Source: Patescibacteria group bacterium
GTDB lineage: Bacteria; Omnitrophota; Gorgyraeia; Gygaellales; Profunditerraquicolaceae
Reading direction: 5' to 3'
Assembly: GCA_035506195.1 (NCBI GenBank)
Contig: DATJPV010000025.1
Location: 22,494 to 86,493, forward strand
DNA length: 64,000 nucleotides
Position 1 is the stretch's first letter. Each line of letters starts with the position of its first letter. Both the position numbers and the translations under genes were made by a program. Below are positions 13,170-54,861 of this stretch, piece by piece. The notes below the pieces were generated by a model, which worked only from the letters and a program-made list of their open reading frames with translations, did no database searches and was not told the DNA's origin.

Positions 13170-13372
13170 AAATAGTTACTTGGCCCTGTCCACGAGGCGT
13201 TGCTTTAATATAGGCAGGTCTTCTGGCTCGGGTATCATTCTAGTTGCTGCGTCTTCCCATCCCGGGTTCTTGAGGGACAGTGACTATTGCAGCTTTCGTC
13301 CACCCTTACAGCGGCGGGACCGCACTCGCTTTCACGAGTTTCCCTTGTCCTATATTACCGTATTGTCGCTTC
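13170..13372 (-). promoter_or_regulatory. cobalamin (AdoCbl) riboswitch aptamer
   Basis: The minus-strand sequence contains the hallmark core GGACAAGGGAAACTCGTGAAAGCGAGTGCGGTCCCGCCGCTGTAAGGGTGGACGAAAGC. This is the AAGGGAA / GTGAAA element plus the B12 box GTCCCGCCGCTGTA. It sits 5' of a btu/cob operon. Confidence 0.85.
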
Positions 13373-17536: not shown

Positions 17537-17539
17537 GAC

Positions 17540-18820: not shown

Positions 18821-19076
18821 CCGATGCTTTTATCTCCGTTATAAGAGAGGCCATGCCCTGAATAGAGCGGAACCGCTGATCAAAGAAATGCTCCTCCTGG
18901 AAGGTGACGCCGAAGGTCTCTTCAAGGAATGTTGCCAGTTCAAACGCCCCCATAGAGTCAATGACGCCGGTTTCAAAAAGATTCTGCCCGTCGCTTAAGT
19001 CTTTTTCGCTGGCCCGTAGCCTGCGGACCAGATACGCCTTTATCTTCTGCCTGATATCATTCTCGCTTACACGCAT
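18813..19076 (-). CDS. acyl/peptidyl carrier protein (DltC-like)
   Basis: 87 aa with a 4'-phosphopantetheine attachment motif (GVIDSMGAFEL). Confidence 0.8.
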   Translation of the reverse strand: MRVSENDIRQKIKAYLVRRLRASEKDLSDGQNLFETGVIDSMGAFELATFLEETFGVTFQEEHFFDQRFRSIQGMASLITEIKASDA

Positions 19077-20527: not shown

Positions 20528-20538
20528 ACGTGCGTATA

Positions 20539-20547
20539 TTATAGCAT
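20539..20547 (-). promoter_or_regulatory. extended -10 element (TGcTATAAT) for the Dlt-like operon
   Basis: Minus strand: GTTATGCTATAATATACGCACGT-ATG. The -10 ends 11 nt before the start codon, which implies a leaderless or very short-leader mRNA. Confidence 0.4.
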
Positions 20548-20609
20548 AACTGCCGTGCGCGTGCGATAGGCGAAGTTTGTTCTTTATTGCCGGGAGAAAA
20601 TGGGCTACA

Positions 20610-22205
20610 ATGATGCGTATGAAGATAGCCTGCATCACGATAAACTCTCTGGATAATTATGCCGGGATCCCGAAATGGAGATATTCCCTGCCATTTGCCT
20701 ACCTGCAAAGCTACTATACGCTGTCGAAATTCCATAGCCGCACGCAGTTCGTCGACATCGTCAAGGACGTCAACGCGGATGAGCCCGAATTGCTGGATGC
20801 CATAGAAAAAGAGTCTCCGGACGTGGCGGCTTTTTCCTGCTACGTCTGGAACACGCAAAAAGTATGCAGGCTCCTGCCCAAAATACGAAAGCGCCTCAGG
20901 CAGACCCGGATCGTAGTCGGCGGCCCCGAGTGCACCCCTGATTTCATGGGGCTGCTGGAGCCCGGCTCTTATTTCGATGTCCTCGTAAAAGGCGAAGGGG
21001 AAACGGTATTCCGTCAGCTCATCGACACTCTGCATGAAACCGGCGGGATCGCGCACGATATCCCGGGGACCATCTGTTATGCAAAGGCAGCGCGCCGCTT
21101 CATCGAAAACCCCGATGCCCAGCCGCTTAGGGATATCAATGCCATACCTTCTCCATACCTAAACGGCATCATCGATGTCAAAGGGCTGGCAAGCTCGGTG
21201 ATCGGGATAGAGACCCAGAGAGGCTGCGCCTATCACTGCGGCTATTGCAGCTATCCTAAAGGCGCCAAGACGATACGCTATTTCGATATGCAGCGGATCC
21301 TTCGGGAACTGGACCTTATTCTGGCGGCAGGACCCCGGCAGCTGTATCTGATGGACCCGATGTTCAATTCCGACCGGAACCGGGCAGGGCAGATACTGCG
21401 GCACATCGGCAAAAAAAATACCGCGCCCAAAACCGTCATCAACACCGAGATCCTTATCGATACCATGGATGAAACATTGTTTGCGCTTGCGCGCAAGGCG
21501 GGAGTCAAAACGATCGAGGTGGGGATCCAAAGTTTCAATCCTGTTGCGATAAAAAACCTCCACCGGCACCGCAACGAAAAGAAGCTCCTGGCGAACATGC
21601 GCACAGGCTTAAAATACGGACTCAACCTGATCCCGCAGATCATCTACGGGCTTCCGGGGGATACGCTCGGCGATTTCTTCGATTCTTTCGACAGGATGTA
21701 CGCGTTTAAGGTAAAAGAACTTGACCTGTTCCGGCTCTTGATCCTGCCGGGCACCGAATTCAGGAAAAAAGCGCTGTTGTACGGCATGACCTATGATGCC
21801 GCGCCGCCCTATGAGATAAGGTCGAACGGACAACTCTCGGTAAAAGAAGCCGACTATCTGGATCTGTTCAGAAAGGTGGTTCTGTGCACCGTCTGGTACA
21901 AAGAAGTTATCATGCAGATCTGCCGGAAGGCCCATTTGCCATACCACCAGCTCTTTAACGGGTTTGTGGCAGCGCGGAGAAGATCCCTGGAAAATACCAT
22001 CTTCGACTGGCCGATACACTCGAAGGAAGACAAGGACAGCGCCATGCGCATAGTCAGGCGCTTCAGCGATTATTTAGGAAAAACGGCGGGGCGCTCGAAA
22101 GGAACGTACGAGCCGATCCGGCGCAAGATCGCGCAAGCCGAAGCCTATACCAAGAAGGTCCTGCTTTTTAGATACTTAAGCGTCCGCAGCACTAGGCCTG
22201 TTTAA
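20610..22205 (+). CDS. cobalamin-binding (class B) radical SAM enzyme
   Basis: An N-terminal Rossmann-type B12-binding domain (RIVVGGPECTP) followed by a radical SAM CxxxCxxC (CAYHCGYC). Alternative starts exist at 20613 and 20619 (MKIACIT). TACAAT at 20606-20611 would make the 20619 start leaderless. Confidence 0.8.
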   Translation: MMRMKIACITINSLDNYAGIPKWRYSLPFAYLQSYYTLSKFHSRTQFVDIVKDVNADEPELLDAIEKESPDVAAFSCYVWNTQKVCRLLPKIRKRLRQTRIVVGGPECTPDFMGLLEPGSYFDVLVKGEGETVFRQLIDTLHETGGIAHDIPGTICYAKAARRFIENPDAQPLRDINAIPSPYLNGIIDVKGLASSVIGIETQRGCAYHCGYCSYPKGAKTIRYFDMQRILRELDLILAAGPRQLYLMDPMFNSDRNRAGQILRHIGKKNTAPKTVINTEILIDTMDETLFALARKAGVKTIEVGIQSFNPVAIKNLHRHRNEKKLLANMRTGLKYGLNLIPQIIYGLPGDTLGDFFDSFDRMYAFKVKELDLFRLLILPGTEFRKKALLYGMTYDAAPPYEIRSNGQLSVKEADYLDLFRKVVLCTVWYKEVIMQICRKAHLPYHQLFNGFVAARRRSLENTIFDWPIHSKEDKDSAMRIVRRFSDYLGKTAGRSKGTYEPIRRKIAQAEAYTKKVLLFRYLSVRSTRPV

Positions 22206-24388
22206 GGCTGCCGGTATGGCGCCAGCGCCTCTTGCAGCTTGGCATTTTTCAAACCGCACTCACTTGCTTTATCGCAATACTCAATAGCCAGCTTGTACTG
22301 TTTCTGCTTAAAATAATACTTAGATAAATTATCATAGGCTCTGGCATGCTTCGGATCGGCCTCTATCGCCTTCTTGAAGAATGCGACGGCTTCGCCTTCC
22401 CTGCCGAGCTTGTAGTACACCGAGCCGATATTGTTAAGCACTCTTGCATACTTTGGCGCAAGCGCAAACGCCTTGTGGTAAACCGCCAAGGCATCCTGAT
22501 ATTTCTGCATCCTCTCATACACCACGCCTAAATTATAATAGGCGTCTACGTAGGCGGGGTCTATCGCGACGGCCTTAAGGTATGCCTTCTCTGCTTCCGG
22601 GAACTCTTTCTGGTGCGTATAGGCGTTGCCCAGATTATAGTAAGCCTTGGCGTAATCCGGCTCGCATTGTATCGCCTTCATGTATAAGGCCATTGCCTCC
22701 CGGACCTTTCCTTGCTTTTCATACACCGAGCCGAGGTTATTATAGGCGACCTCCTCGTCAGGATTCAGCGATATGGCTTTCTTGTACAAGGCGATCGCCT
22801 CTTCGGTTTTTCCCATCTGCTCATAAATGACGCCGAGGTTATTGTACGGCGTCACATAGTTGGGATTTGCCTTGATCGATTCCTTGTAGAGGGCTATCGC
22901 GGTGTCAAAATGACCCGCCTTTTCGTTCATGACCCCCAGGTTATTATAGGGGATAGCCGCCGAGGATTCCGTCTGCAGGGGCTTCTTGAACAGCGCCATA
23001 GCCTCCTGATACAGGCCAAGCCTTTCATATATCGTCCCCAGGTTATTGAGCGCCCGTGCGTTGTGCGGCTCAAGCGCCAGGAGCCTTTTCAGCAGATCTA
23101 TGGCCTTGTCTAATTCCCCTTGCTCCTTATAGATGTTGCTTAAGTTCAGCAGGGCAATGGTACTGTGGGGATTATATTTGAGCAACCTGGTATAGGTTTC
23201 CTGCGGATTCCTCCAGAACTTATTCTGCGCCATACTGAGCGCTGAATACGCCAGTACCAGGCAGGCTGCCAGGGCCGTGGCGCAATATGCGCATTTCTTG
23301 ATCCTGGATAAGCGCGAAAAACCCGCTGCCAGAAGAAGGCATACCCCCAGGGAAGGCAGGTATAAAAAATGCTCTGCCATATAAGAAAACAACGGATAGA
23401 TGTTGGAGACGGGCGCCAGAGAAATCAGAAACCAGGATATGCAGAAAAATACCAGGGGGCTGCCCCTCTTGGACCTGAAGATATACAGGAAGGCATACAC
23501 TAAAAAAGCGGCTACCAGGCCCATGCCGAGCAGCGCCTGGGGATGGCTGAACTTAAAAAGGGGCCGGCCGTAATCGATGTGCAGATTATACGGCAGGACC
23601 ATCAGGCGGATATAATTTGTGATAGCCACAAAAAGCCCGGGCACCCTTTCAAGGGCGCTATGCGCGACGCCTGCCTTGAGGCTGGCTACTTTAAAAAGGA
23701 ACGAACGCGCAAAAAGATACGCACCGGCCATGCCGCACAACAGGACAAAAACGCTTACACGCGCCGGCTTCCGGAAGCAGGCGTGATAGAGCGCCAGCAG
23801 CGCGGGAAACACGATGCCGTTTTCCTTAAGCAGGAGTATCGCCGCAAAACACAGCACCAGCAGCGCCGTATTGCGCAAAACCCTCTTATCCTCCAGCTGC
23901 TTTACATAAAAGATCAGGCCCAGCAGTATGCACAAAACAACCAGCAGGTCGGCGCGGTCGGAGATATAGGCTACCGACTCAACCTGCACGGGGTGCGCGA
24001 CAAAAAACAGGGCCGTCAACAGCGCCAGGAGCTTTTCTTGAAAAAGTATAAGGATGAGCCAGTAGACGGCCAGCGCAACCAGAATATGCAAAATGGTATT
24101 GGTGAGATGGTAGGTGGAGCTGTTCAATTTCCCGAAGGTGTAGCTGATCCTGAAGGAAAACGTCGTCAGGGGGCGGTAAAATCCGAAGCGCGCCTTGCCT
24201 CCGGGAGAAAAATCATCGTTGATGACCTTCGATAGCGTAAGGCCGCTTTTGATGCGGGGGTTCTGTTCGATCACGAATTGATCATCCAGAACAAACTTGC
24301 CGTGCAACGAATTCGCGTAAATCGCGCATCCTAAAACCGCTATCAAAAACAAAGGTACGAATGATCGTAAGAAAACGGATCTGGTCAT
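22202..24388 (-). CDS. TMTC-like protein: N-terminal GT-C/PMT-like polytopic membrane domain fused to ~13 C-terminal TPRs
   Basis: ORF 22202..24592; the likely start is MTRSVFL at 24388. About 11 TM helices with a DUF1736/PMT_2-like conserved region (HLTNTILHILVALAVYW...VAHPVQVESVAYIS). The C-terminal half is canonical TPR (AYNNLG, AYYNLG repeats). Confidence 0.7.
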   Translation of the reverse strand: MTRSVFLRSFVPLFLIAVLGCAIYANSLHGKFVLDDQFVIEQNPRIKSGLTLSKVINDDFSPGGKARFGFYRPLTTFSFRISYTFGKLNSSTYHLTNTILHILVALAVYWLILILFQEKLLALLTALFFVAHPVQVESVAYISDRADLLVVLCILLGLIFYVKQLEDKRVLRNTALLVLCFAAILLLKENGIVFPALLALYHACFRKPARVSVFVLLCGMAGAYLFARSFLFKVASLKAGVAHSALERVPGLFVAITNYIRLMVLPYNLHIDYGRPLFKFSHPQALLGMGLVAAFLVYAFLYIFRSKRGSPLVFFCISWFLISLAPVSNIYPLFSYMAEHFLYLPSLGVCLLLAAGFSRLSRIKKCAYCATALAACLVLAYSALSMAQNKFWRNPQETYTRLLKYNPHSTIALLNLSNIYKEQGELDKAIDLLKRLLALEPHNARALNNLGTIYERLGLYQEAMALFKKPLQTESSAAIPYNNLGVMNEKAGHFDTAIALYKESIKANPNYVTPYNNLGVIYEQMGKTEEAIALYKKAISLNPDEEVAYNNLGSVYEKQGKVREAMALYMKAIQCEPDYAKAYYNLGNAYTHQKEFPEAEKAYLKAVAIDPAYVDAYYNLGVVYERMQKYQDALAVYHKAFALAPKYARVLNNIGSVYYKLGREGEAVAFFKKAIEADPKHARAYDNLSKYYFKQKQYKLAIEYCDKASECGLKNAKLQEALAPYRQP

Positions 24389-25467
24389 CGGGCGGCCTTT
24401 GCGTTGTGAATAAAAAAGTTCAGCAGTTTTTTTGCGGGCGTCAGGCATGCCATGGAAGTCTTTACGTCCCGCAGGTCGATATTCTCCACCGTCGGCCAGC
24501 TGACGATCTTTACTTCCAGCTTCTTTGCCGCCCCGGCTCCTACCCCTGAAGCGGGGATAAACTTTTTCTCCTTGATGCGGCCCCGGAGGCAAAAGATGAC
24601 GCTGCGGCCCAGGCGGGATCTTAGAAAATCGGTTTTCAGCTGCTGCCTGTCGATATGCGCCTGTCTTGCAAACAGATCGAACAGCTCGGAAAATGCATAG
24701 CCGGCGGGCGCGCTTTTCGCAAGGCCCCTTGCCGGCACACAGCTGCGGAAACGGATCTGGGAGATAAAATGGGTTCGGCGCATGGCAAACATAAGCAGAT
24801 CATTGAGTTCCCGGTCATTCAAGCCGCGATACACCGTAACAGAGAGAATAGTCGCCACGCGCTGGCGCGCAAGATTCAGGAGGGCCTTCTTTTTTGCCGC
24901 CAGGATATTCCGGTTGCCGGAAAGCTTCTCATAGAAGGCGCTCTTTAAGCTGTCGAAAGAAAAAAGTACCTGACCCAGGCCTGCTCTTTTCAGGCTCCTC
25001 ACATATCGTTCATCCGCAAGCCTCAGGCCGTTGGTTTCCAGGACCGCTTGTTTTCCGGAAGCCTTGACCGCCCTGATAATCCGGGGCAGGTCTTGGCGCA
25101 ACGTAGGTTCTCCGCCGGAAAGCTCTACCGACTCCCCTTTAAAATCCTTCACGGCCTGCCGTATTTCGTCAAAGGCCGTATCCGACGTACGGGAGGAACC
25201 GGTAAAACAATATGCGCAACGCACATTGCATCTATGCGTTACCGGCAAAAACATGATCGTAAAATGCAGGGGCTTGCGTAGCGGTATGCCGGCAAACCAC
25301 CGGTAGAACACGGGGTCTTTTTCTACCAGGCCAACAGACGTTCCGTGCCGGGGGCAGGCCTTACGGATAAGGACCCTGCCGCCTTCTTCATAGATACGTG
25401 CAGGGGCCTTGCGGCAGCATACATTGCAAAGGCCCGTGGTCTTGCGGTTTAGCGCATGCATAATCAA
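24385..25467 (-). CDS. radical SAM enzyme with N-terminal Cys4 zinc-ribbon/rubredoxin-like motif
   Basis: N-terminus CNVCC...(19 aa)...CPRHG, then a radical SAM CxxxCxxC (CNVRCAYC) and a glycine-rich SAM motif (ELSGGEPTL). Confidence 0.7.
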   Translation of the reverse strand: MIMHALNRKTTGLCNVCCRKAPARIYEEGGRVLIRKACPRHGTSVGLVEKDPVFYRWFAGIPLRKPLHFTIMFLPVTHRCNVRCAYCFTGSSRTSDTAFDEIRQAVKDFKGESVELSGGEPTLRQDLPRIIRAVKASGKQAVLETNGLRLADERYVRSLKRAGLGQVLFSFDSLKSAFYEKLSGNRNILAAKKKALLNLARQRVATILSVTVYRGLNDRELNDLLMFAMRRTHFISQIRFRSCVPARGLAKSAPAGYAFSELFDLFARQAHIDRQQLKTDFLRSRLGRSVIFCLRGRIKEKKFIPASGVGAGAAKKLEVKIVSWPTVENIDLRDVKTSMACLTPAKKLLNFFIHNAKAAR

Positions 25468-25514
25468 TTTATTTTAGTGAATAGGGCTACCTCTGTCAAG
25501 CGGTTGTTTCCTCC

Positions 25515-25543
25515 TTGAAAGCGCCTGGCGCATAAGGTATAAT
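25515..25543 (+). promoter_or_regulatory. sigma70 consensus-like promoter (TTGAAA-N17-TATAAT)
   Basis: TTGAAAgcgcctggcgcataaggTATAAT ends 9 nt before ATG 25553, giving a leaderless or short-leader transcript. The spacer contains the small palindrome GCGCCTGGCGC. Confidence 0.5.
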
Positions 25544-25552
25544 GAACTTCCT

Positions 25553-27031
25553 ATGAGCAGGAAAGTTATTCTCTTTTATCCACGCCATACGAAAGGCTGG
25601 GAAGTCCAGCCCTGGTGCGACGCCCCCCTGGGCCTTTTGTGCGTCGCAACGCCTTTAGTGCATGCCGGTTATACGGTCAAGATCATCGACCAGCGGATCG
25701 AACCGGCATGGCGCCGGATACTCCAGGATGAGCTAAAAGGCGCCCCGATCTGCGTAGGCATGTCTTCTACTACCGGCCCTCAGCTGCAATATGCCCTCCA
25801 GGTATCCCGGCTCATCAAAGAATACGCGGATGTGCCGGTAGTCTGGGGAGGGGTACACCCAAGCCTCCTGCCGCAGCAAACTTTGCAGGAAGACGATGTC
25901 GATGTGGTCGTCCAGGGAGAAGGCGAAGCGACCTTCCTGGAGCTGGTCAGGGCCCTGGAAGAAAAGAAGCCTCTTAACAGCGTCAAGGGCATCTGGTACA
26001 AGGACAACGCCGCCATCTGCCGCACCGAAAGCCGTCCCTTCATAAACCTTAACGAACAGCCCCCTCTTGCCTGGGACACCATCGAACCGAGGCGCTACAT
26101 CCGCACTGTCTTCGGCGTCGAGCGTTTGAGCTTTTTTACCAGCCGCGGATGCCCCTACGGCTGCGCGTTCTGCTATAACGCCGCATTCAATAAGAGGCGC
26201 TGGCGTTGCCTGGAGCCGGAATTGGCGGTCCGGCGGATAAAAGAACTGGTAGAGACATACAAGGTCAAAGGGATCTTTCTTACCGATTCGAATTCCTTCG
26301 TGGACATGAACTGGGCAAGGCAGTTCTTGAAAGCCTTGATACGCGAAAGGCTGGATATGGTGATCACCCGCATGCACATCTGCTTTGATTCTCTAGTGAA
26401 CATGAATGCGGATGACTTTGCGCTCCTGGAAAAGGCGGGCTGCCGATGCCTGGCTATCGGAATCGAATCCGGCTCAGAGAGAATCCGCAACCTCCTGAAC
26501 AAGCCCATCGACGTATCCGCCCTTCTGAAGATGAACCGGCAATTCGGCGCATACTCTTTTTTCCCTCTCTATTTCTTCATGATCGGCTTTCCGACCGAAA
26601 CAAAGGAAGAAATGAAGGAAACGGTTTCTCTGTTTTCAAGGCTCGTCGAAGAAAACCCCAGGGCCTCCAAGTCCGTGAACATCTATACGCCTTTTCCGGG
26701 CACGGAGCTCTTTAACCTGGCGGTTTCATGCGGGATGAAGCCGCCGCAACGCACCAAAGACTGGGTGGATTTGAATTACCGCAGCGTCAGCCGTTTTTCC
26801 GGCTTCCTTTCGGATGAGATGAGGAGTATCGTGGAAATGCTGGATTTCTGCGCGTTCTTTGTCGGCCGCAGGTCATACCGTTCCCCCTACAAAAAGACCA
26901 ACAAATTCATCGTCTTCTTAAGCAACCTCTACGCCCCCATTGCCAGGAAGCGGATAAGGAACCTGTATTACCGCTTCCCCTTCGAGATCAAACTCGCCAA
27001 GCTCCTGAGGCTCTACGCCAAACAGAGCTAA
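25553..27031 (+). CDS. cobalamin-binding (class B) radical SAM enzyme, paralogue A
   Basis: B12-domain signature VVWGGVHPS, then CPYGCAFC. 492 aa. Near-identical length and collinear sequence to the convergent paralogue 27035..28513. Confidence 0.85.
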   Translation: MSRKVILFYPRHTKGWEVQPWCDAPLGLLCVATPLVHAGYTVKIIDQRIEPAWRRILQDELKGAPICVGMSSTTGPQLQYALQVSRLIKEYADVPVVWGGVHPSLLPQQTLQEDDVDVVVQGEGEATFLELVRALEEKKPLNSVKGIWYKDNAAICRTESRPFINLNEQPPLAWDTIEPRRYIRTVFGVERLSFFTSRGCPYGCAFCYNAAFNKRRWRCLEPELAVRRIKELVETYKVKGIFLTDSNSFVDMNWARQFLKALIRERLDMVITRMHICFDSLVNMNADDFALLEKAGCRCLAIGIESGSERIRNLLNKPIDVSALLKMNRQFGAYSFFPLYFFMIGFPTETKEEMKETVSLFSRLVEENPRASKSVNIYTPFPGTELFNLAVSCGMKPPQRTKDWVDLNYRSVSRFSGFLSDEMRSIVEMLDFCAFFVGRRSYRSPYKKTNKFIVFLSNLYAPIARKRIRNLYYRFPFEIKLAKLLRLYAKQS

Positions 27032-27034
27032 CCG

Positions 27035-28513
27035 TTATTCCTGCTTCGCATAAAGCCGCAAGAATTTGGCAAGCTTTATTTCCAACGGGAACTGATACCA
27101 GAAATGCTTTATCCTTTGGCGTGCCAGGGGTGCGTATGTTTTACAGAGGAACGAAGCCAGGGGGCTGGTTTGCCGGTAGGGCCGCAGGAACTCCTGCTCG
27201 CCGATAAGGTTGAGGCAGAAGTCCATCATCTCTACAAGGCGGCGCATCTTTTTCGACAGCCACGGCGCCCCTTGCGTAAGATTGCGGTAATGGAAAGGGA
27301 ACCACTCTTCTATGCGCTCGGGGAAACGCAGGCCGCTGTTTACCGCAATATCGAAGAGCTCGGTTCCGGGATAGGGGGTATAGATATTGAACACGGCGTC
27401 CGACTTGGCGTTTTCCTTAAGAAGCCTTGAGGCAAGGGAAACGGAAGCCGCAAGGTCCTCTTCGGTTTCTGTCGGGAAACCCATCATAAAAGCGTAATGC
27501 GGGGACATATCGAACTTTTTAAGAAACTTATTCATCTGGAGAAGCTGCTCTACGTCAACCGGCTTTCTAATCAGATCCTGGATCCTTTTGGAACCGGATT
27601 CAACCGCGATGGGAAGCCATCGGCAATTGGCTTTTTGGAGCAGCTCAAAGATCCTTGCATCCATCTTTAACAAAGTGAAAATGTCGAAGTTGATCTTGGA
27701 AATAATGACGCCGGAGTTGTCTTCAATCATCCCTTCCAGGATCTTACGGCCGCGCGGGATATCGAAAAAGAAGTTGGAGTCATTGAAGTAGAGGCCCTTC
27801 ACATGATATTCGCGCACGAAATCCTTGAGCCTTTTAATCACCAGGTCTGCATCCATAGGCCGCCACTTCCTTTTGTGAAAAGCGACATTGTAGCAGAAGG
27901 CACACTGATGCGGGCAGCCGCGGCTGGTAAAGAACTCCATATTCTCGATGCCGAATATTATCCGGGCATGCTTTTTGAGATCGATGAGATGGTAGGGCAG
28001 CGGCGGCTGCCTGTTCAGGTCTGCGAACGGACGAAAGCCGGTGTTTACGAGGCGGCCGTTATCCTTATACCATATCCCCCTGACCGTGCTCAAAGGCCGC
28101 TTGCCTTCAAGGGCCGCAAGGAGCTCCGGAAAGGTCTCTTCGCCTTCTCCTTCGACAACGATATCGATGTTATCGTTACGCAGGCTCTGTTCCGGAAGGA
28201 GGCTGACATGCGTACCGCCCCATACGACGGGAGTGTTGTTATACGCCTTAACCGCCCGGGAGATCTCCAGGGCATAACGCAGCTGCGGCCCGGTCATGGA
28301 TGAGACGCCTACGCAGACAGGGTCTTTTCGGAGCTCCTCTTCCAGCATGGGCTTCCAGTCGGGTTCGACCCGCTGGTCGATGACCTTGACATCGTATCCT
28401 GCCTCCAGGGCAGGAGCGGCGATGCTCAACAGGCTGATCGGGATCCCCACCCTGGGCCGGGCCTGCCAGCCTTTGATGATGTTTGGATATACAAGGACAA
28501 CGCGCTTTTTCAT
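27035..28513 (-). CDS. cobalamin-binding (class B) radical SAM enzyme, paralogue B
   Basis: VVWGGTHVS, then CPHQCAFC. 492 aa. The C-terminus FPLEIKLAKFLRLYAKQE matches FPFEIKLAKLLRLYAKQS of paralogue A. Confidence 0.85.
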   Translation of the reverse strand: MKKRVVLVYPNIIKGWQARPRVGIPISLLSIAAPALEAGYDVKVIDQRVEPDWKPMLEEELRKDPVCVGVSSMTGPQLRYALEISRAVKAYNNTPVVWGGTHVSLLPEQSLRNDNIDIVVEGEGEETFPELLAALEGKRPLSTVRGIWYKDNGRLVNTGFRPFADLNRQPPLPYHLIDLKKHARIIFGIENMEFFTSRGCPHQCAFCYNVAFHKRKWRPMDADLVIKRLKDFVREYHVKGLYFNDSNFFFDIPRGRKILEGMIEDNSGVIISKINFDIFTLLKMDARIFELLQKANCRWLPIAVESGSKRIQDLIRKPVDVEQLLQMNKFLKKFDMSPHYAFMMGFPTETEEDLAASVSLASRLLKENAKSDAVFNIYTPYPGTELFDIAVNSGLRFPERIEEWFPFHYRNLTQGAPWLSKKMRRLVEMMDFCLNLIGEQEFLRPYRQTSPLASFLCKTYAPLARQRIKHFWYQFPLEIKLAKFLRLYAKQE

Positions 28514-28598
28514 GACCTAGCCTTTCGCGGCTGTTTTCGTGTATGCCACATTATAACCCGGATCCGGGAATTATCAAGTAAATCAAGCGGCATTGTGC

Positions 28599-28627
28599 TT
28601 GACAATCTCCGCCGGTTGACATAGAAT
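28599..28627 (+). promoter_or_regulatory. sigma70 consensus promoter (TTGACA-N17-TAGAAT)
   Basis: TTGACAatctccgccggttgacaTAGAAT ends 10 nt upstream of ATG 28638. It sits in a 124-bp divergent intergenic region. Confidence 0.5.
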
Positions 28628-28637
28628 TCATAGCAGA

Positions 28638-29933
28638 ATGCGTATCGCTACGGTATTAAAAATCATCAAGACACAGCTGGCCCGGCACATCAGCCTGGTC
28701 CTGGCTGCCAACATGTCTGCCGCGGCCCTGGGGTTCATATCGCTGCTGCTGGTCGCCCGGGGCTTAAGCGTCGCCGACTTCGGGCTTTTTAACGTCGCCA
28801 TCTCGCTGATCCTCGTCATCCAGGTTTTTACGGCATTCGGCATAGACACAAGCATGGTAACGCATGTGTCTTCTTATCTTGGCAAGGAAAAGCCCGCGCA
28901 GGCCAAAGAAGTAGTCAGCGCCGGTTTTATCTTTATCATCATAAATACCTGCGCCGTCGGCCTGTGCATATATGCCGCCGCTCCATATATCGCAAAGAAT
29001 ATATTCCACCTGCCGCAGCTGGTCTCCCTGCTGCGCCTGGCCTCCCTGGGGATCGCCTGCGTGTCGCTTTTTAATTATACCAAAACCACATTCTACGCTT
29101 ACAAGCAATTCAAGCAGTATGCCTTTATTCTGCTGCTGGTCGACACCCTCAAACTTGCCGTCATCTTCACCCTGGCCCGTTCATCCAGGATAAGCGCCTC
29201 CTCTGCCGTAGCGGCCTTCGGCTTAAGCCCCCTGCTGGGAGCAATCCTGGGGACCTGGGTCTTACGGGACAAGTTCTCCTTATCGGCCAGGCAGGTAAAA
29301 AAGGCAATGTTGGGCCTGCTTGATTTTACGAAGTGGATATTTGTGAGCGATATGGCCAAACAGATATTCCCTTACGTAGGCACCTTCATGCTGGCAAAGC
29401 TGCTGGACAGCAAAGCGGCGGGGATGTACGGGCTGGCGCTTAATCTGACTTACGCATTCCCTATCCTGATCAATTCCTTCAACTCCGTCCTTCTGCCGGA
29501 GCTTTCCCGTTTTAAGCAGATATCGCAGTTTGAAAATTACCTGAAAACTTCTTTTAGGATATTATCATACCTGGTTGCCGCAGCTATCCCCTGCACTTTC
29601 TTCTCGGCTAGATTCATTATCTTCTTTTTCGGCAGCCGCTATGTGAATTCTATCGTCGTGTTGAACTGGCTCATTTTCAACTACTTGGTCACCGCAGTCA
29701 ACTCAACCCTGCTAAACCTGACGCTCTATTCCCTGAAGAAACCCCGCATTGTCGCGGTAAGCGATATCGCAAGGCTGACGGCCATGTTCCTGGGCTGCTT
29801 TTTCCTGATACCCCGCCTGGGAATAGTATGCCCGGCCGTCATTGCGCTGCTCATTAATACTTCTGCCGCAATATTCCTGGCCTCCTACGTCTTCAATCAC
29901 ATCAAGCTGGTCAAGTCGTTGTCGCCGGCTTAG
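28638..29933 (+). CDS. MOP-superfamily polysaccharide/oligosaccharide flippase (Wzx-like)
   Basis: 431 aa, 12-14 TM helices, with a polysaccharide-biosynthesis-protein-like N-terminus. Confidence 0.7.
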   Translation: MRIATVLKIIKTQLARHISLVLAANMSAAALGFISLLLVARGLSVADFGLFNVAISLILVIQVFTAFGIDTSMVTHVSSYLGKEKPAQAKEVVSAGFIFIIINTCAVGLCIYAAAPYIAKNIFHLPQLVSLLRLASLGIACVSLFNYTKTTFYAYKQFKQYAFILLLVDTLKLAVIFTLARSSRISASSAVAAFGLSPLLGAILGTWVLRDKFSLSARQVKKAMLGLLDFTKWIFVSDMAKQIFPYVGTFMLAKLLDSKAAGMYGLALNLTYAFPILINSFNSVLLPELSRFKQISQFENYLKTSFRILSYLVAAAIPCTFFSARFIIFFFGSRYVNSIVVLNWLIFNYLVTAVNSTLLNLTLYSLKKPRIVAVSDIARLTAMFLGCFFLIPRLGIVCPAVIALLINTSAAIFLASYVFNHIKLVKSLSPA

Positions 29934-30729
29934 TTGCCTTCACGCAGGTAAAATAACCCGACAGGTACTTCAGGGGGCTTTTCTCCAGCCGTTCGCATAT
30001 GCCCAAGAGCTTCAAAAAACATCCCGTGGCCGTGTTGCTGCGCAGCAAAGCCACAAGAGAGCCTATCCAGATCGCAAAAAACCTCGGACAATGCACGATA
30101 GCACCGGTATACCTGACCTTAAACCCCTGTCCTTCCAGGACGCGTATTAATTCCGATCTTGAAAGAGTAGCCCCCATGTAAAACGGGATAATGCCGGCGG
30201 ACTTAAGCAGGCCGTAGGGCAGCGCATTCCTGAGCCGGATCACCGGGTTCAAGGGATTATCGAGCGTCAGGATCAGTTCTCCTTTGGGTTTCAAAACCCG
30301 GAATAATTCCTTGATGCCGGCGACGATGTCATCTTTGGAGGGGAAGTGGTCAAGCGTAGAATTGGAAATAACCGTATCAAAGGAATTGTCTTCGAAGGAA
30401 AGCTTGCGGATGTCCGTCACCACGATCCCCTGCAGGGCGATCTTCTGCCGGGTGAGCCTCTGGCGGGCATGGCCGGCGACCGCAGGCGAACAATCCATAC
30501 CCACCAGGGAAAGCCGCTGCGGGCTCAGGAGGGAAAACAGGCTGTGGTCGGTTATGGTCTCGTCATACAGGTCGGTTTTAAGCCACAGCTTCCCCGGGGC
30601 GTTATTCCCATCGAAGATCATCCTCCGGTAGATCTCTTTTAAATGGATCCTCCAGACATCCTCTCTTGCGCTCTTGAGGTTCCGGTCGGCGATCGCATCC
30701 CAATACTCGCTATTGGCCTTTACGCTCAT
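29911..30729 (-). CDS. class I SAM-dependent methyltransferase
   Basis: Motif I (LVGMDCSPAVAG), acidic post-I (VTDI), motif II/III (FDTVISNSTLDHF...LKPKGELILT). Confidence 0.75.
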   Translation of the reverse strand: MSVKANSEYWDAIADRNLKSAREDVWRIHLKEIYRRMIFDGNNAPGKLWLKTDLYDETITDHSLFSLLSPQRLSLVGMDCSPAVAGHARQRLTRQKIALQGIVVTDIRKLSFEDNSFDTVISNSTLDHFPSKDDIVAGIKELFRVLKPKGELILTLDNPLNPVIRLRNALPYGLLKSAGIIPFYMGATLSRSELIRVLEGQGFKVRYTGAIVHCPRFFAIWIGSLVALLRSNTATGCFLKLLGICERLEKSPLKYLSGYFTCVKATKPATTT

Positions 30730-30733
30730 CGGT

Positions 30734-31954
30734 TCAAAATCGCCCCTGCATCCTTTTCGTAAAGTATTCTGCCGAAGCGCTCTTCACCAGGGGCCGAGGC
30801 AGCAGTCCGTTACGATACAAACTCATGCCTGACAAAAACAGCATCCCGCGCAATGACTTCTTTTCCGACGAGGCCTTTACGCGGCCAAAACGCTCCAGCG
30901 CTACTTCTTGGAGCGCCGCCAGGGGCCTTTTCCCCGCGCCGAAAGTATCCCGGATAAGATCCGATACCTGCGCGAAGAATACCGTCCCGATATCCCTGTC
31001 TATCTCTTGAGGCCGAAAGCCGGCAAACTCCATCGTCCCGCCGAGGATGCCTCCGCAATTAGCAATGAAGTGCGGGATGCAAATCACGCCTTTTTGAAAA
31101 AGGATGTCTTCTGCCTCGGTGGTGAGGGGAAGGTTTGCGCCGGGCGAGATCAATCCGGCCCTGATCCGGGAAACGTTGCCCTTATGAATACTGCTGCCTA
31201 TGGCGCAGGGGAAAAGCGCATCCACATCCAGCTCGACAAGGGCTCCCGGCTCCAGCCTCTGTGCGCGAAAGTCTGCGCTGCGTTCGACGATCCTGCTGCC
31301 CAGCTCCTGCCGTAATTTCAACAAAGCAGGGATATCCAGCCCCTCTTTTGCAAAAAGGGTTCCCCTGCTCGTAGACACCGCCACGACCCTGCTGCCCAAC
31401 CGATACAGGTTTTCGGCTACGGCAGAACCTACGCTGCCGAAGCCCTCTACGGCAACGGTCGCTCCCGCCAGATCCATGCGCGCAAACTGTGCCCCTGCCT
31501 TTGCGCAGGCAATCACCGTTAAGCTTGTATACCATCCGCCCCTTTCCGTTACCAGGGCCCTTGCGGGAACCGGCCTTCCCAGGGTTTTCAGTGCAGCAGT
31601 AATGCAGTCGCGGTCTGTGCCCACATCCGGATAAGGCTCATACACCACCTCCCCCAGGATTGCCTGCGCCTTCTTGAGGAACTTCTGCAGAAGAAAAACC
31701 TTTTTTTCCTTAGGGGCCTCGTCATCGCAAGAGATACCGGCCTTTGCCCCGCCGTGCGGCAGGCCCAGGAACCCGAATTTCAGGGTCATGGCTTCTGCCA
31801 GGCCTGCCATCTCCTGCGCATCGATACCTTGCCGTATCCGTAAGCCCCCGCAACAACGGTTATTGATCAGGGAGTCTACCGCCAGCCACCCCTGCAGGCC
31901 GCAGGCATCATCGGTGACCGGGAAAACCTGCGGCAGCTTAACGGTCCGGCTCAT
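30734..31954 (-). CDS. Glu/Leu/Phe/Val-dehydrogenase-family amino acid dehydrogenase
   Basis: Substrate-domain signature CCGGLRI...MTLKFGFLGLPHGGAKAGI (compare GGxR...MTYK...GGGK). NAD(P) Rossmann motif VAVEGFGSVGSAV. Confidence 0.65.
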   Translation of the reverse strand: MSRTVKLPQVFPVTDDACGLQGWLAVDSLINNRCCGGLRIRQGIDAQEMAGLAEAMTLKFGFLGLPHGGAKAGISCDDEAPKEKKVFLLQKFLKKAQAILGEVVYEPYPDVGTDRDCITAALKTLGRPVPARALVTERGGWYTSLTVIACAKAGAQFARMDLAGATVAVEGFGSVGSAVAENLYRLGSRVVAVSTSRGTLFAKEGLDIPALLKLRQELGSRIVERSADFRAQRLEPGALVELDVDALFPCAIGSSIHKGNVSRIRAGLISPGANLPLTTEAEDILFQKGVICIPHFIANCGGILGGTMEFAGFRPQEIDRDIGTVFFAQVSDLIRDTFGAGKRPLAALQEVALERFGRVKASSEKKSLRGMLFLSGMSLYRNGLLPRPLVKSASAEYFTKRMQGRF

Positions 31955-32939
31955 GAGGCCTCCTGATGGATAAAAACGTTATACAACAGGCAAAAACGAA
32001 AGAGCTGTAAAAAAGATAGAACCAGTGGAACGGTATTGCCCGGACGGTGAAGAAAAAACCTTTTGTGCGCAGGAAAAATGCATACAGGTCCCGGTTCAAA
32101 TAAACCAGGCCCCCGGACAGCGCAAAAAACATAAAGGCAAGAAAAGGAAAGCACCACGCAAAAATCACGGATAAAAATAGGAGCAGGGAAAACGCGCCGC
32201 TTAGCCTATCGGAGAGCTTGAAATTCAGGTCATACGGCAGCCCTCTTTTTGCCGCAAGCCTGGTCCAGGGGATGGTCCGGTGCAGTATGTCGGATCTGAT
32301 CAGGCTGATAAAACCCCATTTTTTCAAGTGCGTAACCTGAATATCCTTAACCAGTTTTATCTTATTGCCCCCTGCGGCCAAATCATACCCTAATGCCACA
32401 TCTTCAATCTCCGGATTAAGGTATTTTTCCAAGAACCCCCCTGCCTTCAAAAAAACATCCCTGCGGACCGCCCCGCAGCCCGCCCAAAATGTCTTTGCCT
32501 GGACGCTGGCATGCTGATGCACAAAATAGTGGTGAAGGTTCTTGTATTGCGAAAAGAAATTCGCAGCCGCCGGGGCAGCATCATAGGAGCCAAAGATCGC
32601 GGCAGCCTCTTTATCCTCTTGGAAGGCCGCGGCTACTTTTGAGACCGTATCCGCGGCAACCCTGACATCGGCATCTACGAAGAAAAGGACCTGGCCCCTG
32701 CTCTTCTGGACGCCAAGATTACGCGCCCTGGCCGGGCCGGCCCTGTTTTCAAGCACAACGACCGTATCGGCCCAGGGGCGCGCAAGTGCCGCGGTCCCGT
32801 CGCTTGAGGCATCATCCACGACGATAAGTTCAAAAGACGGGTAATCCGACCGGCGCAGCGCCTGCAGGCATGCGGTCACATAATCCTTGGCATTGTGGGC
32901 GGGAACGATAATGGAAACCAGAGTGCGGTTAGCGGGCAT
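31938..32939 (-). CDS. family 2 glycosyltransferase with C-terminal TM helices
   Basis: GT-A N-terminus (VSIIVPAHNAKDYV...VVDDASSDGT, DxD FFVDADV), then 2-3 TM helices. Confidence 0.8.
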   Translation of the reverse strand: MPANRTLVSIIVPAHNAKDYVTACLQALRRSDYPSFELIVVDDASSDGTAALARPWADTVVVLENRAGPARARNLGVQKSRGQVLFFVDADVRVAADTVSKVAAAFQEDKEAAAIFGSYDAAPAAANFFSQYKNLHHYFVHQHASVQAKTFWAGCGAVRRDVFLKAGGFLEKYLNPEIEDVALGYDLAAGGNKIKLVKDIQVTHLKKWGFISLIRSDILHRTIPWTRLAAKRGLPYDLNFKLSDRLSGAFSLLLFLSVIFAWCFPFLAFMFFALSGGLVYLNRDLYAFFLRTKGFFFTVRAIPFHWFYLFYSSFVFACCITFLSIRRPHEPDR

Positions 32940-34428
32940 TAATCTTTAAGTATAATCCTTTTTCCGTATAATCTTTCCTCTCATCGCAGCTGAACATTTC
33001 TCTGCGGTTATTTTCGTCATCCAGGGCCCGGGCAGCCAGGAACCCTTCTTCAAGGGCGGCGTCCATATTAAGGTAACGGAACCGGCCCTGCCTGCCGGCG
33101 ATCACAAGAGGATCGAAGCCCTGCAGATACGCGTAAATTTTGCGCAGGCGCTCCTTGTAATCCAGCAGGTACACCGGATACGCGTGCGGCGCATAGGTGG
33201 AAAAATAACCCAGTATCTTATTTTCTACGGCGATGCCCATCTTGGCAAGGTCATGCACGCAGAACTTAAGCAGGTCCGCATCGGGCATCCTCCAGAGCCT
33301 GCCTCCCTCCTCGCAGGCAACCTCAAGGGTAAGCGCTGTTTTTCCGGGAGGGCAGTTGGCCGGGTGCCAATTGCATACTTCCTGTATGCGAAAGAAAATG
33401 AACTTTCTTTCCGGCACATAGATCCAGGTATTCGAGGTGATCTGCGATGTATCAAGCATGACGTTCAGGAAGCGCACGGAACGCAAATGCAGGCCCCTTG
33501 CGGCATCCAGCACATCAGCCGGCGGCAGGGGTCGAAAGGAAAAAATGAATTCGTTCAAGGGGATAGTAGAGATAACTTTGTCGGCCAGGATCTTTCTCGG
33601 AGTTCCGTCCCGGGAAACAACGGTGAGCAAAAAACCCTGCGCCTGAGGGCAAATCTCCGCCAGGCGATGACCGGTAAGGATGCGCGCGCCGGCGGCGCTG
33701 GCATGCTCGGCGATGCGGCGGGGGATCTGGCCGATGCCTCCTTGGGGATATACGAATTGGCGCGCATACGTTTTGATGTGCTTGTCCTTTTTAAAGAGCA
33801 GGTTCCTTAACGCCAGGCCCATATTCGGCACGGAGATACGCTGCGATGCCCATTCCGCGGAGATCCCCGAAGTCTTTCTCCCCCAGAGCTTATAGGAATA
33901 AGGCCCAAAGTAGATATCGTAGAGGGTCGGCCCAAAACGGCGCATCATCCAGTCTTTCAGGGAGATTTCCGCGGGCAATCTGAACAGATGGCTGGTTAAC
34001 CGGAAATAGAGGCTGTCTATGCCGCTCTTCAGGCAGGTAATCGGCCCCAGGTTCTTAAGGATATCCGCGAACTCCGGCGGGTAAGCCAGGAACTTGCCCT
34101 TAAGGTAGATCTGGCTGAGCCTGTCCCTTAACGCAAGTTCTCCGGGGACAGGGAATAAAGAACTGACATAGTCTGCGGTCTGCTGGTTATGCGGCAGGAA
34201 CCTGTGCCCGCCCAGATCGAAGATAAAGCCATCCTGCGCAAGACTGCGGCACATCCCTCCGACCGAGTTTTCTTTCTCGATGACCATGACGCCTGCGCCC
34301 TGGCTGGCAAGCTTATCTGCCGCTGCCAGGCCGGCTAAGCCTGCGCCTAAGACGACGATTTCCGTCTTTTGCTGGTCTTCTTTCATGCCGTTATCTCCTA
34401 TCAATAGAAAAGGCGCTCTCTGGTACAC
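32929..34428 (-). CDS. FAD-dependent oxidoreductase (amine-oxidase / protoporphyrinogen-oxidase-like fold)
   Basis: Dinucleotide-binding motif VVLGAGLAGLAAA...VIEKENSVGGMCRS. The start is possibly MKEDQQ at 34386. Confidence 0.7.
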   Translation of the reverse strand: MYQRAPFLLIGDNGMKEDQQKTEIVVLGAGLAGLAAADKLASQGAGVMVIEKENSVGGMCRSLAQDGFIFDLGGHRFLPHNQQTADYVSSLFPVPGELALRDRLSQIYLKGKFLAYPPEFADILKNLGPITCLKSGIDSLYFRLTSHLFRLPAEISLKDWMMRRFGPTLYDIYFGPYSYKLWGRKTSGISAEWASQRISVPNMGLALRNLLFKKDKHIKTYARQFVYPQGGIGQIPRRIAEHASAAGARILTGHRLAEICPQAQGFLLTVVSRDGTPRKILADKVISTIPLNEFIFSFRPLPPADVLDAARGLHLRSVRFLNVMLDTSQITSNTWIYVPERKFIFFRIQEVCNWHPANCPPGKTALTLEVACEEGGRLWRMPDADLLKFCVHDLAKMGIAVENKILGYFSTYAPHAYPVYLLDYKERLRKIYAYLQGFDPLVIAGRQGRFRYLNMDAALEEGFLAARALDDENNRREMFSCDERKDYTEKGLYLKINAR

Positions 34429-38184: not shown

Positions 38185-38232
38185 TATATAAAAGCAGTAT
38201 ATTAATAATGCCGGGATCTGTCAAGTATTTTT

Positions 38233-38706
38233 TCAGCGATTTTGATCGGCGCCTTTTTTCTTTTCTCGCTGGTCATGAAGCCGCTCTTTTCTGATCTCTT
38301 GCTGCTTTTCCGCGATCTGCTGAAATTTGGCAAACTGTTCAGGCGTCAGGAGTTCCTTCAGGGTAAAAATGCGGCTTATCCTGCCGTCGATCAGTTGCGC
38401 CTGCAGGGATTTGAGGCTGCTGACGAGCGGATCGACCGAGGCGCGAGTCACCTCGGGGCTCTTCAGGGCCTTTTGTAATTCCACCTCTTTTTCCTTGATC
38501 GCCGTAAGCAGCTTGACGAGTTCGTCACGCTGTGTCTTGCGGTTTTCCTCCAGCTTTTTCTGCTGTTCCGCAGTCAAGTTAAGCTCTTTGGCAAGGCGGC
38601 TTTTCTCGACGGCAGCGTGCTGAGATGCCTCGTCCGTTGTCTGGGCGCACACCGTTGCTGAGCTTAAGAAAATTACGGCCAATCCAATGCCTAATGTCCT
38701 CTTCAT
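38233..38706 (-). CDS. Spy/CpxP-family periplasmic chaperone-like protein
   Basis: Signal peptide, then two LTxxQ motifs (LTAEQQKKL and LTPEQFAKF) in a helical, Lys/Glu-rich 157-aa protein. Confidence 0.6.
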   Translation of the reverse strand: MKRTLGIGLAVIFLSSATVCAQTTDEASQHAAVEKSRLAKELNLTAEQQKKLEENRKTQRDELVKLLTAIKEKEVELQKALKSPEVTRASVDPLVSSLKSLQAQLIDGRISRIFTLKELLTPEQFAKFQQIAEKQQEIRKERLHDQREKKKGADQNR

Positions 38707-38793
38707 CCTCGTGCCTCCTTTTAAGTGGACATGAACAAGTATAGCGTTGTGTAATCCGATATTATATGGAGAACGCCTCGTTATTACAAGAAT

Positions 38794-51577: not shown

Positions 51578-51578
51578 C

Positions 51579-53705: not shown

Positions 53706-53711
53706 ACAAAG

Positions 53712-54044: not shown

Positions 54045-54054
54045 ATTCTTTCTT

Positions 54055-54860: not shown

Positions 54861-54861
54861 G

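Follow-up and report, generated by a model that had tools for sequence, protein, structure and literature searches.

A possible cell-envelope glycosylation island combines a TMTC-like glycosyltransferase with a recurrent cobalamin-dependent radical SAM cassette

Ten adjacent genes fill positions 20610-34386 of the window, the 64-kb stretch of DNA analysed here. They may form a mosaic cell-envelope glycosylation island with two recurrent, interleaved modules; we give this reading about an even chance. Module A comprises a flavin adenine dinucleotide (FAD) enzyme similar to UDP-galactopyranose mutase (UGM), a family 2 glycosyltransferase (GT2), a MOP/Wzx-type flippase and a GT-C glycosyltransferase with tetratricopeptide repeats (TPR). 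Module B consists of the cobalamin-dependent (B12) radical S-adenosylmethionine (SAM) enzymes B12b and B12c, the radical SAM enzyme TesS, an amino-acid dehydrogenase of the ELFV family and a class-I SAM methyltransferase (MT). Judged from its sequences, Module B is a reduced copy of a widespread, abundant and uncharacterised cassette. A third cobalamin enzyme, B12a, lies at the island border.

In the proposed route, the UGM-like flavoenzyme would supply an unusual nucleotide sugar, probably a furanose. The membrane GT2 would load the sugar onto a lipid carrier at the cytoplasmic face, the MOP protein would flip the lipid-linked sugar and the TMTC-like GT-C/TPR protein would transfer it in the periplasm. 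The most likely acceptor would be the adhesin encoded immediately upstream of the UGM-like and GT2 genes and apparently co-transcribed with them. Module B most likely makes or C-methylates a small molecule of the 2-oxo- or amino-acid type, and its product may become a substituent or precursor of a surface glycan. The reading is carried by folds, motifs, domain memberships and co-occurrence statistics; substrates, step order, acceptor and the roles of B12a and of an upstream acyl-activation operon are what we infer. A more specific version is tentative and rather unlikely: a bacterial TMTC-type route, in which a TPR-bearing GT-C enzyme puts a furanose-type sugar on (inverse) autotransporter adhesins and the cassette of cobalamin radical SAM enzymes, dehydrogenase and MT adds a C-methylated substituent derived from an amino acid.

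Genes were located from a list of open reading frames (ORFs) together with gene calls on the source contig, Logan SRR8879134, whose proteins are also in NCBI as HTY45034.1, and domains were assigned by Pfam cut-offs (Table 1). The original prediction, made from the DNA letters, had listed the same ten adjacent genes. Pfam agreed with its MOP/Wzx flippase, class-I methyltransferase, ELFV enzyme (both domains) and GT2 with two C-terminal transmembrane segments, the latter predicted by a transmembrane scan. Its TMTC-like GT-C/TPR protein was also confirmed. The membrane half of this protein had no match in Pfam, in a PDB sequence search or in a profile search, and the fold was settled by structure prediction only. 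The AlphaFold2 (AF2) model of the N-terminal 430 residues has a GT-C fold (predicted local distance difference test, pLDDT, 91.4). The motif FVLDDQ follows the first transmembrane segment (TM1), and its aspartates D35 and D36 are invariant in 42 homologues. The C-terminal TPR array has 8 repeats (TPR_1, 2.8e-67). Many homologues contain PF13231 and some are labelled protein O-mannosyl-transferase by the Joint Genome Institute (JGI). Because of these homologues and the invariant aspartates after TM1, the predicted architecture is TMTC-like.

In TM3, LFFVAHPVQVE is similar to the LLFAVHPIHT motif of human TMTC3 (PMC7801869). TMTC proteins have a DUF1736 loop between TM7 and TM8 (PMC7801869); neither DUF1736 nor PMT_2 had a Pfam match in residues 1-410 of the window protein at E <= 1. 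The protein shares with the eukaryotic TMTC1-4, which are O-mannosyltransferases of cadherins in the GT-C/PMT clan, a multi-spanning GT-C part, the DD motif in the first outward loop, a non-cytoplasmic C-terminal TPR array, an HP-x-H/Q-x-E motif in TM3 and an association with adhesion proteins. Unlike them, it is bacterial and lacks DUF1736 and PMT_2 according to Pfam. To judge by its UGM-like neighbour, its donor would probably differ from dolichyl phosphate mannose (Dol-P-mannose).

The FAD protein had been called amine-oxidase-like, in agreement with its PF01593 match. Its nearest solved relatives are eukaryote-type UGM (PDB 4u8l/3ute, 1.6e-27 over 350 residues); the Pfam GLF domain gave no match. 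The flippase scored 90.8 bits for PF01943 against a cut-off of 28.2 and has about 12 transmembrane segments. By analogy, Module A has the logic of known GT2/flippase/GT-C systems that use lipid-phosphate sugars, such as GtrA/B/V in the glucosylation of O-antigen, ArnC/ArnT and actinobacterial Ppm1/PMT. In contrast to these, the GT2 has no specific similarity to GtrB, ArnC or DPMS, the flippase is of the MOP/Wzx and not of the GtrA type, the GT-C protein has TPR, and genes for a UGM-like mutase and for radical SAM enzymes accompany the system. The logic of GT2, flippase and GT-C is already known; the island also contains an orphan pathway.

A second locus, present on two contigs (L092/L093), encodes an operon in the order cobalamin radical SAM enzyme, autotransporter, UGM-like enzyme, GT2, GT2, GT-C/TPR protein and SPASM-type radical SAM enzyme. 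Identities to the window proteins are 59% for the UGM-like enzyme, 58% for GT2 and 52-55% for the GT-C/TPR protein, which is the closest GT-C/TPR homologue. The autotransporter is rich in threonine and serine (25% Ser+Thr). The giant Ser/Thr/Asn/Gly-rich beta-helix adhesin predicted downstream of the island was likewise found, with S+T+N+G of 40.5%, an IAT_beta domain and beta-helix repeats. Gene order in two independent loci, the window and L092/L093, thus ties Module A to adhesins at the level of sequence. The cobalamin enzyme of L092 is only 24-27% identical to B12b and B12c and therefore no orthologue of them.

Transcription units were predicted by matching sigma-70-like consensus sequences over 12 positions. 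Two divergent promoter-like pairs and a single site before the adhesin matched at 11/12. The latter is the only such match for the adhesin-UGM-GT2-ELFV-MT unit; the gap from the adhesin stop (34480) to the UGM-like start (34386) has no site of similar quality. Genes overlap at TesS/GT-C, where the GT-C start lies over the TesS stop codon, at UGM/GT2 and at GT2/ELFV. From promoter-like sites and overlaps, six units are likely: adhesin-UGM-GT2-ELFV-MT, MOP, B12c, B12b, TesS-GT-C and B12a. The adhesin is the probable first gene of its unit, with apparent co-transcription.

All three cobalamin enzymes have the B12-binding domain PF02310 and the radical SAM domain PF04055 above Pfam cut-offs, and the motifs CAYHCGYC, CPYGCAFC and CPHQCAFC were read in their translations. 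The assignment as three class B radical SAM enzymes with these cysteine motifs thus agrees with Pfam and translations. The VVWGGxH signature attributed to all three is present in B12b and B12c only; B12a reads IVVGGPECT. B12b and B12c are 49% identical to each other, and B12a is only 24-27% identical to either. The nearest solved enzymes of B12a are CysS (1.2e-28) and TokK (2.5e-22), and the NCBIfam model KedN5 gave 130 bits against a cut-off of 700. These similarities suggest that B12a is likely a C-methyltransferase of the KedN5/CysS/TokK type.

B12b and B12c are equidistant from all solved cobalamin enzymes. Their family is unnamed and very large, with members of about 492 residues and more than 2400 matches at E < 1e-20. 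No characterised member was found; members are automatically labelled 'BchE' or 'YgiQ'. With the class B methyltransferases CysS, TokK and KedN5 they share the B12-binding Rossmann domain and the radical SAM core with CX3CX2C; membership in the unnamed family sets them apart from these. The absence of a match to a characterised pathway had been predicted and holds for all cobalamin enzymes of the island: none reached the cut-off of the NCBIfam clades BchE, HpnR, HpnJ, TIGR04072, PhpK, BzaD, KedN5 and ApyD. The best scores were 145 and 130 bits for BchE (cut-off 481), 105-112 for HpnJ (578), 86-113 for the ladderane model TIGR04072 (360) and 70-80 for HpnR (650). Weak matches of B12b and B12c to methylases of ribosomally synthesised and post-translationally modified peptides (RiPPs) were 112-117 bits for ApyD (750) and 69-96 bits for rSAM_ocin_1.

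The alignment of B12b and B12c was used to scan metagenomes. This yielded 80 loci, and their ORFs were clustered into families. The recurrent gene order was MT, nitroreductase, ThrC-like PALP protein, HMGL-like (homocitrate-synthase-like) protein, cobalamin radical SAM enzyme, an optional SPASM radical SAM enzyme plus second cobalamin radical SAM enzyme, and ELFV. At such loci, the SPASM enzyme occupies the place of TesS as the radical SAM partner without B12. Frequencies were counted in the 19 metagenome loci of at least 10 kb with a cobalamin gene at least 40% identical to B12b: MT was present in 13 and ELFV, PALP, HMGL-like and nitroreductase genes in 12 each. B12c orthologues (66-81% identity) are usually located directly upstream of an ELFV-like gene, as in L014, L015, L023 and L057. 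Homologues of MT (33-43% identity) adjoin cobalamin or ELFV genes in 19-21 loci, and homologues of ELFV (38-56% identity) occur in 22-24 loci. Among the 13 cassette loci that are 10 kb or longer, 9 also contain glycan genes (GT2, MOP, GT4, UGM-like or GT-C/TPR), joined by sulfotransferase, asparagine-synthase-like and Mur-ligase-like genes. UGM-like genes are located beside the cassette in L048 and L059, GT-C/TPR homologues in L020, L037, L041 and L078. The intact ten-gene set was found nowhere else. Its sub-sets recur: the TesS/B12b pair, B12c, ELFV, MT, UGM, GT2 and GT-C/TPR co-recur in unrelated metagenomes, and this co-recurrence exceeds chance.

The conserved partners, namely ELFV, ThrC-like, homocitrate-synthase-like and nitroreductase proteins, point to small-molecule chemistry on oxo or amino acids. 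The repeated placement of the cassette in glycan loci suggests that its product joins a surface glycan. The dehydrogenase of the window (PF00208 135.8 bits, PF02812 50.9 bits) keeps the catalytic lysine (GGAKAG), the aspartate (PYPDVGT) and the Rossmann motif GFGSVG in an alignment with the glutamate dehydrogenase of T. maritima (1b26). In glutamate dehydrogenase, a lysine and a serine bind the gamma-carboxylate of glutamate. These binders are replaced in ELFV, AKGG by CCGG and GGVTVS by GGILGG. It is not a glutamate dehydrogenase proper (best NCBIfam score 148 against 620). With the catalytic residues kept and the side-chain binders replaced, ELFV probably works as a dehydrogenase on an amino or oxo acid other than glutamate.

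Two candidate pathways for the cassette were rejected. An anaerobic benzimidazole (Bza) pathway had been considered from weak BluB and BzaD matches; the scores were far under the cut-offs and a ThiC-like BzaA/BzaF was absent. A phosphonate pathway, considered from weak PhpK and Sden_1168 matches, lacked a phosphoenolpyruvate mutase in the cassette loci scanned. Literature searches found no description of the cassette and nothing on cobalamin radical SAM genes in polysaccharide loci. Some loci have a conserved tail after ELFV (L054 13368-20780; L051 9422-14130; L014 5944-10274) with two Mur-ligase-like genes, a SPASM radical SAM gene and the family f17, which has no Pfam match. The L054 tail also contains GNAT, weak AMP-binding and asparagine-synthase genes. 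The tail genes, none of which is present in the window, suggest amide ligation of the cassette product.

TesS is a short member (358 residues) of the Tes/HMPTM/TrsS superfamily with a CX3CX2C motif and a C-terminal WPTVENIDL motif. It had been described as a fourth radical SAM enzyme with an N-terminal Cys4 ribbon. The ribbon is present (PF23545), as Cys3-His instead of Cys4. In an alignment of 15 family members, C12, C15, C36 and H39 of the ribbon are invariant and C78, C82 and C85 nearly so; this alignment shows no other conserved cysteines. The AF2 model (pLDDT 88.6) shows the ribbon, radical SAM core and C-terminal domain of a Tes fold. Foldseek superimposed it over the whole length with GDGT-MAS, the glycerol dialkyl glycerol tetraether (GDGT) enzyme of PDB 7tol (TM score 0.82, E 6.4e-27); the next fold was MoaA with 0.55. 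The sequence match to 7tol by phmmer (2.1e-33) covers the radical SAM core only. The structure of GDGT-MAS contains Fe-S cluster ligands besides those of the radical SAM motif. TesS has no such conserved cysteines. Published criteria for Tes are a BLASTP E < 1e-50, an identity > 30% (20% in one figure) and a length > 400 residues (PMC8941075); TesS falls outside with 358 residues and 2.1e-33. The NCBIfam Tes model NF045702 gave 134 bits against a cut-off of 450 and TrsS a higher 155 bits, and all cut-offs were missed. TesS thus resembles Tes/GDGT-MAS, HMPTM and TrsS in ribbon, core and overall fold. It differs from Tes/GDGT-MAS by being about 135 residues shorter, by the absence of extra conserved cysteines, by scores under every family cut-off and by its genomic partners, among them a cobalamin radical SAM gene plus genes for glycans or small molecules, in place of lipid genes. 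Short 'Tes-like' radical SAM genes should not be taken as markers of tetraether lipids in biomarker surveys.

A genome scan with the TesS alignment and the WPTVENIDL pattern detected only two loci, a count that poorly reflects the distribution of TesS because the pattern is narrow. An exhaustive hidden Markov model (HMM) search retrieved 834 representatives at E < 1e-30, and the idea of a rare subfamily was rejected. TesS and B12b also form a divergent pair in at least three further lineages. In a Phycisphaerales metagenome-assembled genome (MAG; L002/L007), TesS is 47% and B12b 64% identical. In L005/L012 the identities are 61% and 76%, and L005 also has a B12c orthologue (81%). In L013 (41% and 62%), the pair is joined to a nitroreductase-PALP-HMGL-B12 block. 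TesS occurs without a cobalamin partner in L006 and L008. The TesS homologue of the Phycisphaerales MAG (L002 10001-11122; P0006; GCA_003171235.1) reads PITLRPPSRGAPGRSDLPY where all others have CX3CX2C. The same altered sequence occurs on five contigs, which points to a pseudo-enzyme or to a local frameshift that recurs. Within the TesS superfamily, ribbon and radical SAM domains are also fused to a class-I methyltransferase (P0023, 612 residues) and to a signal-peptidase-like S24/S26 domain (P0016, 598 residues).

Four other explanations were weighed. According to one hypothesis of the original prediction, the three cobalamin enzymes C-methylate or rearrange a lipid-linked hexose made by GT2, the flippase exports it and the GT-C/TPR protein glycosylates the adhesins. 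Its glycosylation skeleton is retained here, with the GT-C fold, the DD motif, the L092/L093 operon and the adhesin-side promoter-like site. Its radical step on a lipid-linked sugar finds no support: the tight partners of B12b and B12c are ELFV and MT, joined elsewhere by the ThrC-like, homocitrate-synthase-like and nitroreductase proteins, which is a small-molecule enzyme set. Synthesis or C-methylation of a small molecule is the more probable role, ahead of methylation acting directly on the lipid-linked sugar. Taken literally, the hypothesis is unlikely, even though every required part is present and adjacent and the L092 operon also joins a cobalamin and a second radical SAM enzyme with UGM, GT2, GT-C and autotransporter. 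Cobalamin radical SAM enzymes that C-methylate sugars exist, namely GenK, GenD1 and MoeK5, and were counted in its favour. MoeK5 has served as the outgroup for the archaeal methylase Gmm (PMC11214058). However, the dehydrogenase, ThrC-like, homocitrate-synthase-like and nitroreductase partners have no obvious role on a lipid-linked sugar, and the cobalamin enzyme of L092 is not orthologous. The other hypothesis, tailoring of membrane lipids, is highly improbable. TesS would form a C-C bond or methylate lipid tails, B12b and B12c would act like GDGT ring synthases or methylases, and the glycan genes would be unrelated. The archaeal genes for Gms, a radical SAM enzyme without B12, and for the cobalamin methylase Gmm are clustered, and both enzymes have the same lipid as their substrate (PMC11214058). 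The TesS-B12b pair stands alone in the Phycisphaerales MAG. The sole basis of this hypothesis in the window is the resemblance of TesS to GDGT-MAS in fold and in sequence (2e-33). The missed Tes criteria, the Tes score below that of TrsS and the lack of conserved cysteines beyond ribbon and CX3CX2C argue against it. One member of the fold family, HMPTM, methylates a pterin. The neighbourhoods of TesS and of B12b/B12c contain no conserved genes for lipid synthesis, and the HpnR, HpnJ and ladderane scores are far under the cut-offs.

The radical SAM enzymes and MT could instead act on the adhesin polypeptide while it is still in the cytoplasm, either by C-methylating it as in proteusins or through SPASM-type chemistry, with glycosylation as a separate process. 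The window and L092 both pair a cobalamin and a second radical SAM enzyme with an adhesin gene, and B12b and B12c weakly match ApyD and rSAM_ocin_1. Radical SAM enzymes of the SPASM type often act on peptides, and the second radical SAM enzyme of L092 is a SPASM protein. We consider this explanation barely credible: the RiPP scores are far under the cut-offs, precursor-peptide or leader-recognition genes were not seen, and most cassette loci have small-molecule enzymes and no adhesin gene. It is also quite unlikely that the genes form no functional unit and are merely juxtaposed. Cobalamin radical SAM, TPR and glycan genes are each very numerous in such anaerobes, and at least five transcription units alternate between the strands of the island. 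Paralogues of the GT-C/TPR protein have unrelated gene neighbours elsewhere, and no other locus was found to contain the complete set. Yet the sub-sets recur across distant lineages far above chance, and the adhesin, UGM and GT2 genes have orthologous synteny with L092. One or two ELFV-like genes are expected per genome by our own estimate; 24 were present in about 690 kb of B12-anchored loci.

Several observations weigh against the mosaic glycosylation island. PALP, HMGL-like and nitroreductase genes are absent from the whole 64-kb window, and the window version of the cassette may therefore act differently. The cassette loci L027 and L036 have no glycan genes within reach. The adhesin-UGM-GT2-GT-C operon was found in one other locus only, and distant GT-C/TPR homologues (40-43% identity) are located among housekeeping genes in unrelated contexts. 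The MOP gene of the window has no orthologue among the MOP genes linked to the cassette elsewhere, and an initiating phosphoglycosyltransferase was not seen in the window. The FAD protein scored 337 against a cut-off of 389 for PRK07208.1-4 and 55 against 304 for the UGM model TIGR00031. GT2 showed no specific similarity to known synthases of polyprenyl-phosphate sugars: GtrB, DPMS and ArnC were absent among its PDB matches, and its ArnC score was only 19 bits. The promoter-like sites are consensus evidence only. Genes for B12 salvage and the Dlt-like module described below were absent beside the cassette in about 95 related loci, with an N-terminal homologue of the SGNH/TPR protein in L091 as the sole exception.

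If the glycosylation model is true, the island is a first genomic handle on TMTC-like protein or envelope glycosylation in bacteria tied to adhesins. With more than 2400 relatives of B12b, the cassette marks a sizeable part of the cobalamin-dependent chemistry of sediment and peat bacteria as orphan. It may help to explain the many cobalamin radical SAM genes in organisms that only salvage corrinoids. If confirmed, a furanose with a C-methylated substituent would add a new class to the known glycan modifications and a new pathway to the metabolism of many anaerobic lineages.

Table 1. Genes and predicted regulatory elements of the island and its surroundings (window positions; Pfam domains unless stated otherwise).
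Feature	Position	Strand	Evidence
Cobalamin riboswitch	13196..13368	-	Rfam RF00174, 91.1 bits, full-length match
Corrinoid uptake/salvage operon	7642-13127	-	Peripla_BP_2, FecCD, ABC_tran, His_Phos_1, CobU, DBI_PRT, CobS
SGNH-like/TPR protein, 893 aa, one N-terminal transmembrane segment	13411..16092	-	GDS(L)/SGNH-like motif (YRILCVGDSTTGG), long TPR array
MBOAT membrane O-acyltransferase, DltB-like	16082..17536	-	PF03062 4.2e-21; TIGR04091 176 bits, cut-off 375
Pyridoxal-phosphate-dependent Orn/DAP/Arg-type decarboxylase	17540..18820	-	PF02784/PF00278; TIGR03099 421 bits, cut-off 478; lysA 252 bits
Acyl/peptidyl carrier protein, 87 aa	18813..19076	-	Gene call; PF00550 1.5e-8
AMP-forming ligase	19067..20506	-	PF00501/PF13193; TIGR03098 534 bits, cut-off 592
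B12a, cobalamin radical SAM enzyme	20610..22205	+	PF02310 and PF04055 above cut-offs
TMTC-like GT-C glycosyltransferase with C-terminal TPR	22202..24388	-	About 10-11 transmembrane segments, DD motif
TesS, radical SAM enzyme with N-terminal ribbon, 358 aa	24385..25461	-	PF23545 and PF04055
Divergent promoter-like pair TesS/B12b	25471..25543	minus 25499-25471; plus 25515-25543	11/12 each
B12b, cobalamin radical SAM enzyme, 492 aa	25553..27031	+	PF02310 and PF04055
B12c, paralogue of B12b	27035..28513	-	PF02310 and PF04055
Divergent promoter-like pair B12c/MOP	28550..28627	minus 28577-28550; plus 28599-28627	11/12 each
MOP/Wzx-type flippase	28638..29933	+	PF01943 1.3e-25; PF13440
Class-I SAM methyltransferase (MT)	29911..30729	-	PF08241 2.2e-16
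ELFV-family amino-acid dehydrogenase	30734..31954	-	PF00208 and PF02812
Membrane-anchored GT2 glycosyltransferase	31938..32939	-	PF00535 6.9e-29
FAD enzyme, UGM-like	32929..34386	-	PF01593 (flavin amine-oxidase fold)
Inverse-autotransporter-type beta-helix adhesin, 1234 aa	34480..38184	-	PF11924 IAT_beta, PF13229 Beta_helix
Promoter-like site before adhesin	38196-38224	-	11/12

A riboswitch-led corrinoid salvage operon had been placed directly upstream of the island. The operon exists, with btuF/C/D-like and cobC/U/T/S-like genes and a TonB-dependent receptor behind the riboswitch; it does not adjoin the island, and five genes intervene. As predicted, genes for corrin-ring synthesis are absent within the window. 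The salvage operon is context and lies outside the island. Its link to the island is circumstantial, and the adjacency is not conserved in any related locus. Two genes are non-standard for salvage: the riboswitch-led operon runs on into a diphthamide-synthase-like gene (PF01902, 6955-7629), and a weak radical SAM/helix-hairpin-helix protein is encoded beyond the TonB-dependent receptor (3991-5115).

The five intervening genes (13411-20506) form a single minus-strand operon for acyl activation. NCBIfam associates the set of ligase, decarboxylase and carrier protein (TIGR03098, TIGR03099) with exosortase-A exopolysaccharide (EPS) loci; a literature search on this ligase set found nothing relevant. 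In the window, a set of this kind is combined with Dlt-like parts, the MBOAT protein and the SGNH-like protein, whose gene is the last of the operon and which is a possible DltD-like partner of MBOAT. The operon thus shares with exosortase-A EPS sets and Dlt D-alanylation the near-cut-off TIGR03098 and TIGR03099 matches, the carrier protein, a DltB-like MBOAT and an SGNH-like protein. In contrast to these systems, both members of the exosortase-associated pair score just under their cut-offs, the module is not beside the cassette in other loci and no exosortase was seen among the window proteins scanned, which did not include every ORF. Speculatively, the Dlt-like operon and the KedN5-type B12a may load an acyl or aminoacyl group onto an exported polymer.

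Beyond the 1234-residue adhesin, a second large surface protein with PKD/fn3 domains is encoded. Genes for an LTXXQ/Metal_resist periplasmic protein and a DUF4870 membrane protein (38233-39174) lie between the two giant surface-protein genes. The L092 region, like the window, is rich in large surface proteins; a ShlB/POTRA transporter of two-partner secretion and a protein of more than 1200 residues are encoded a few genes downstream of its operon (15129-21764). The window also encodes a TonB-dependent receptor, an ExbB-type protein, the inverse-autotransporter beta domain and complex-I/Mrp-type subunits (5117-7096, 34480-38184, 48579-49208, 50636-59577), all of them typical of diderms that have a respiratory chain. 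Among named organisms, 'Candidatus Omnitrophica' has the closest homologues of the GT-C/TPR protein, and the NCBI label of the MAG, 'Patescibacteria group bacterium', is probably wrong or very loose. Towards the end of the window (59686-63785), an uncharacterised nucleotidyltransferase (PF14907) is encoded near an ABC exporter with a fused transmembrane domain, with an ORF (60944-62122) between them. Such a pairing often marks loci of peptide natural products.

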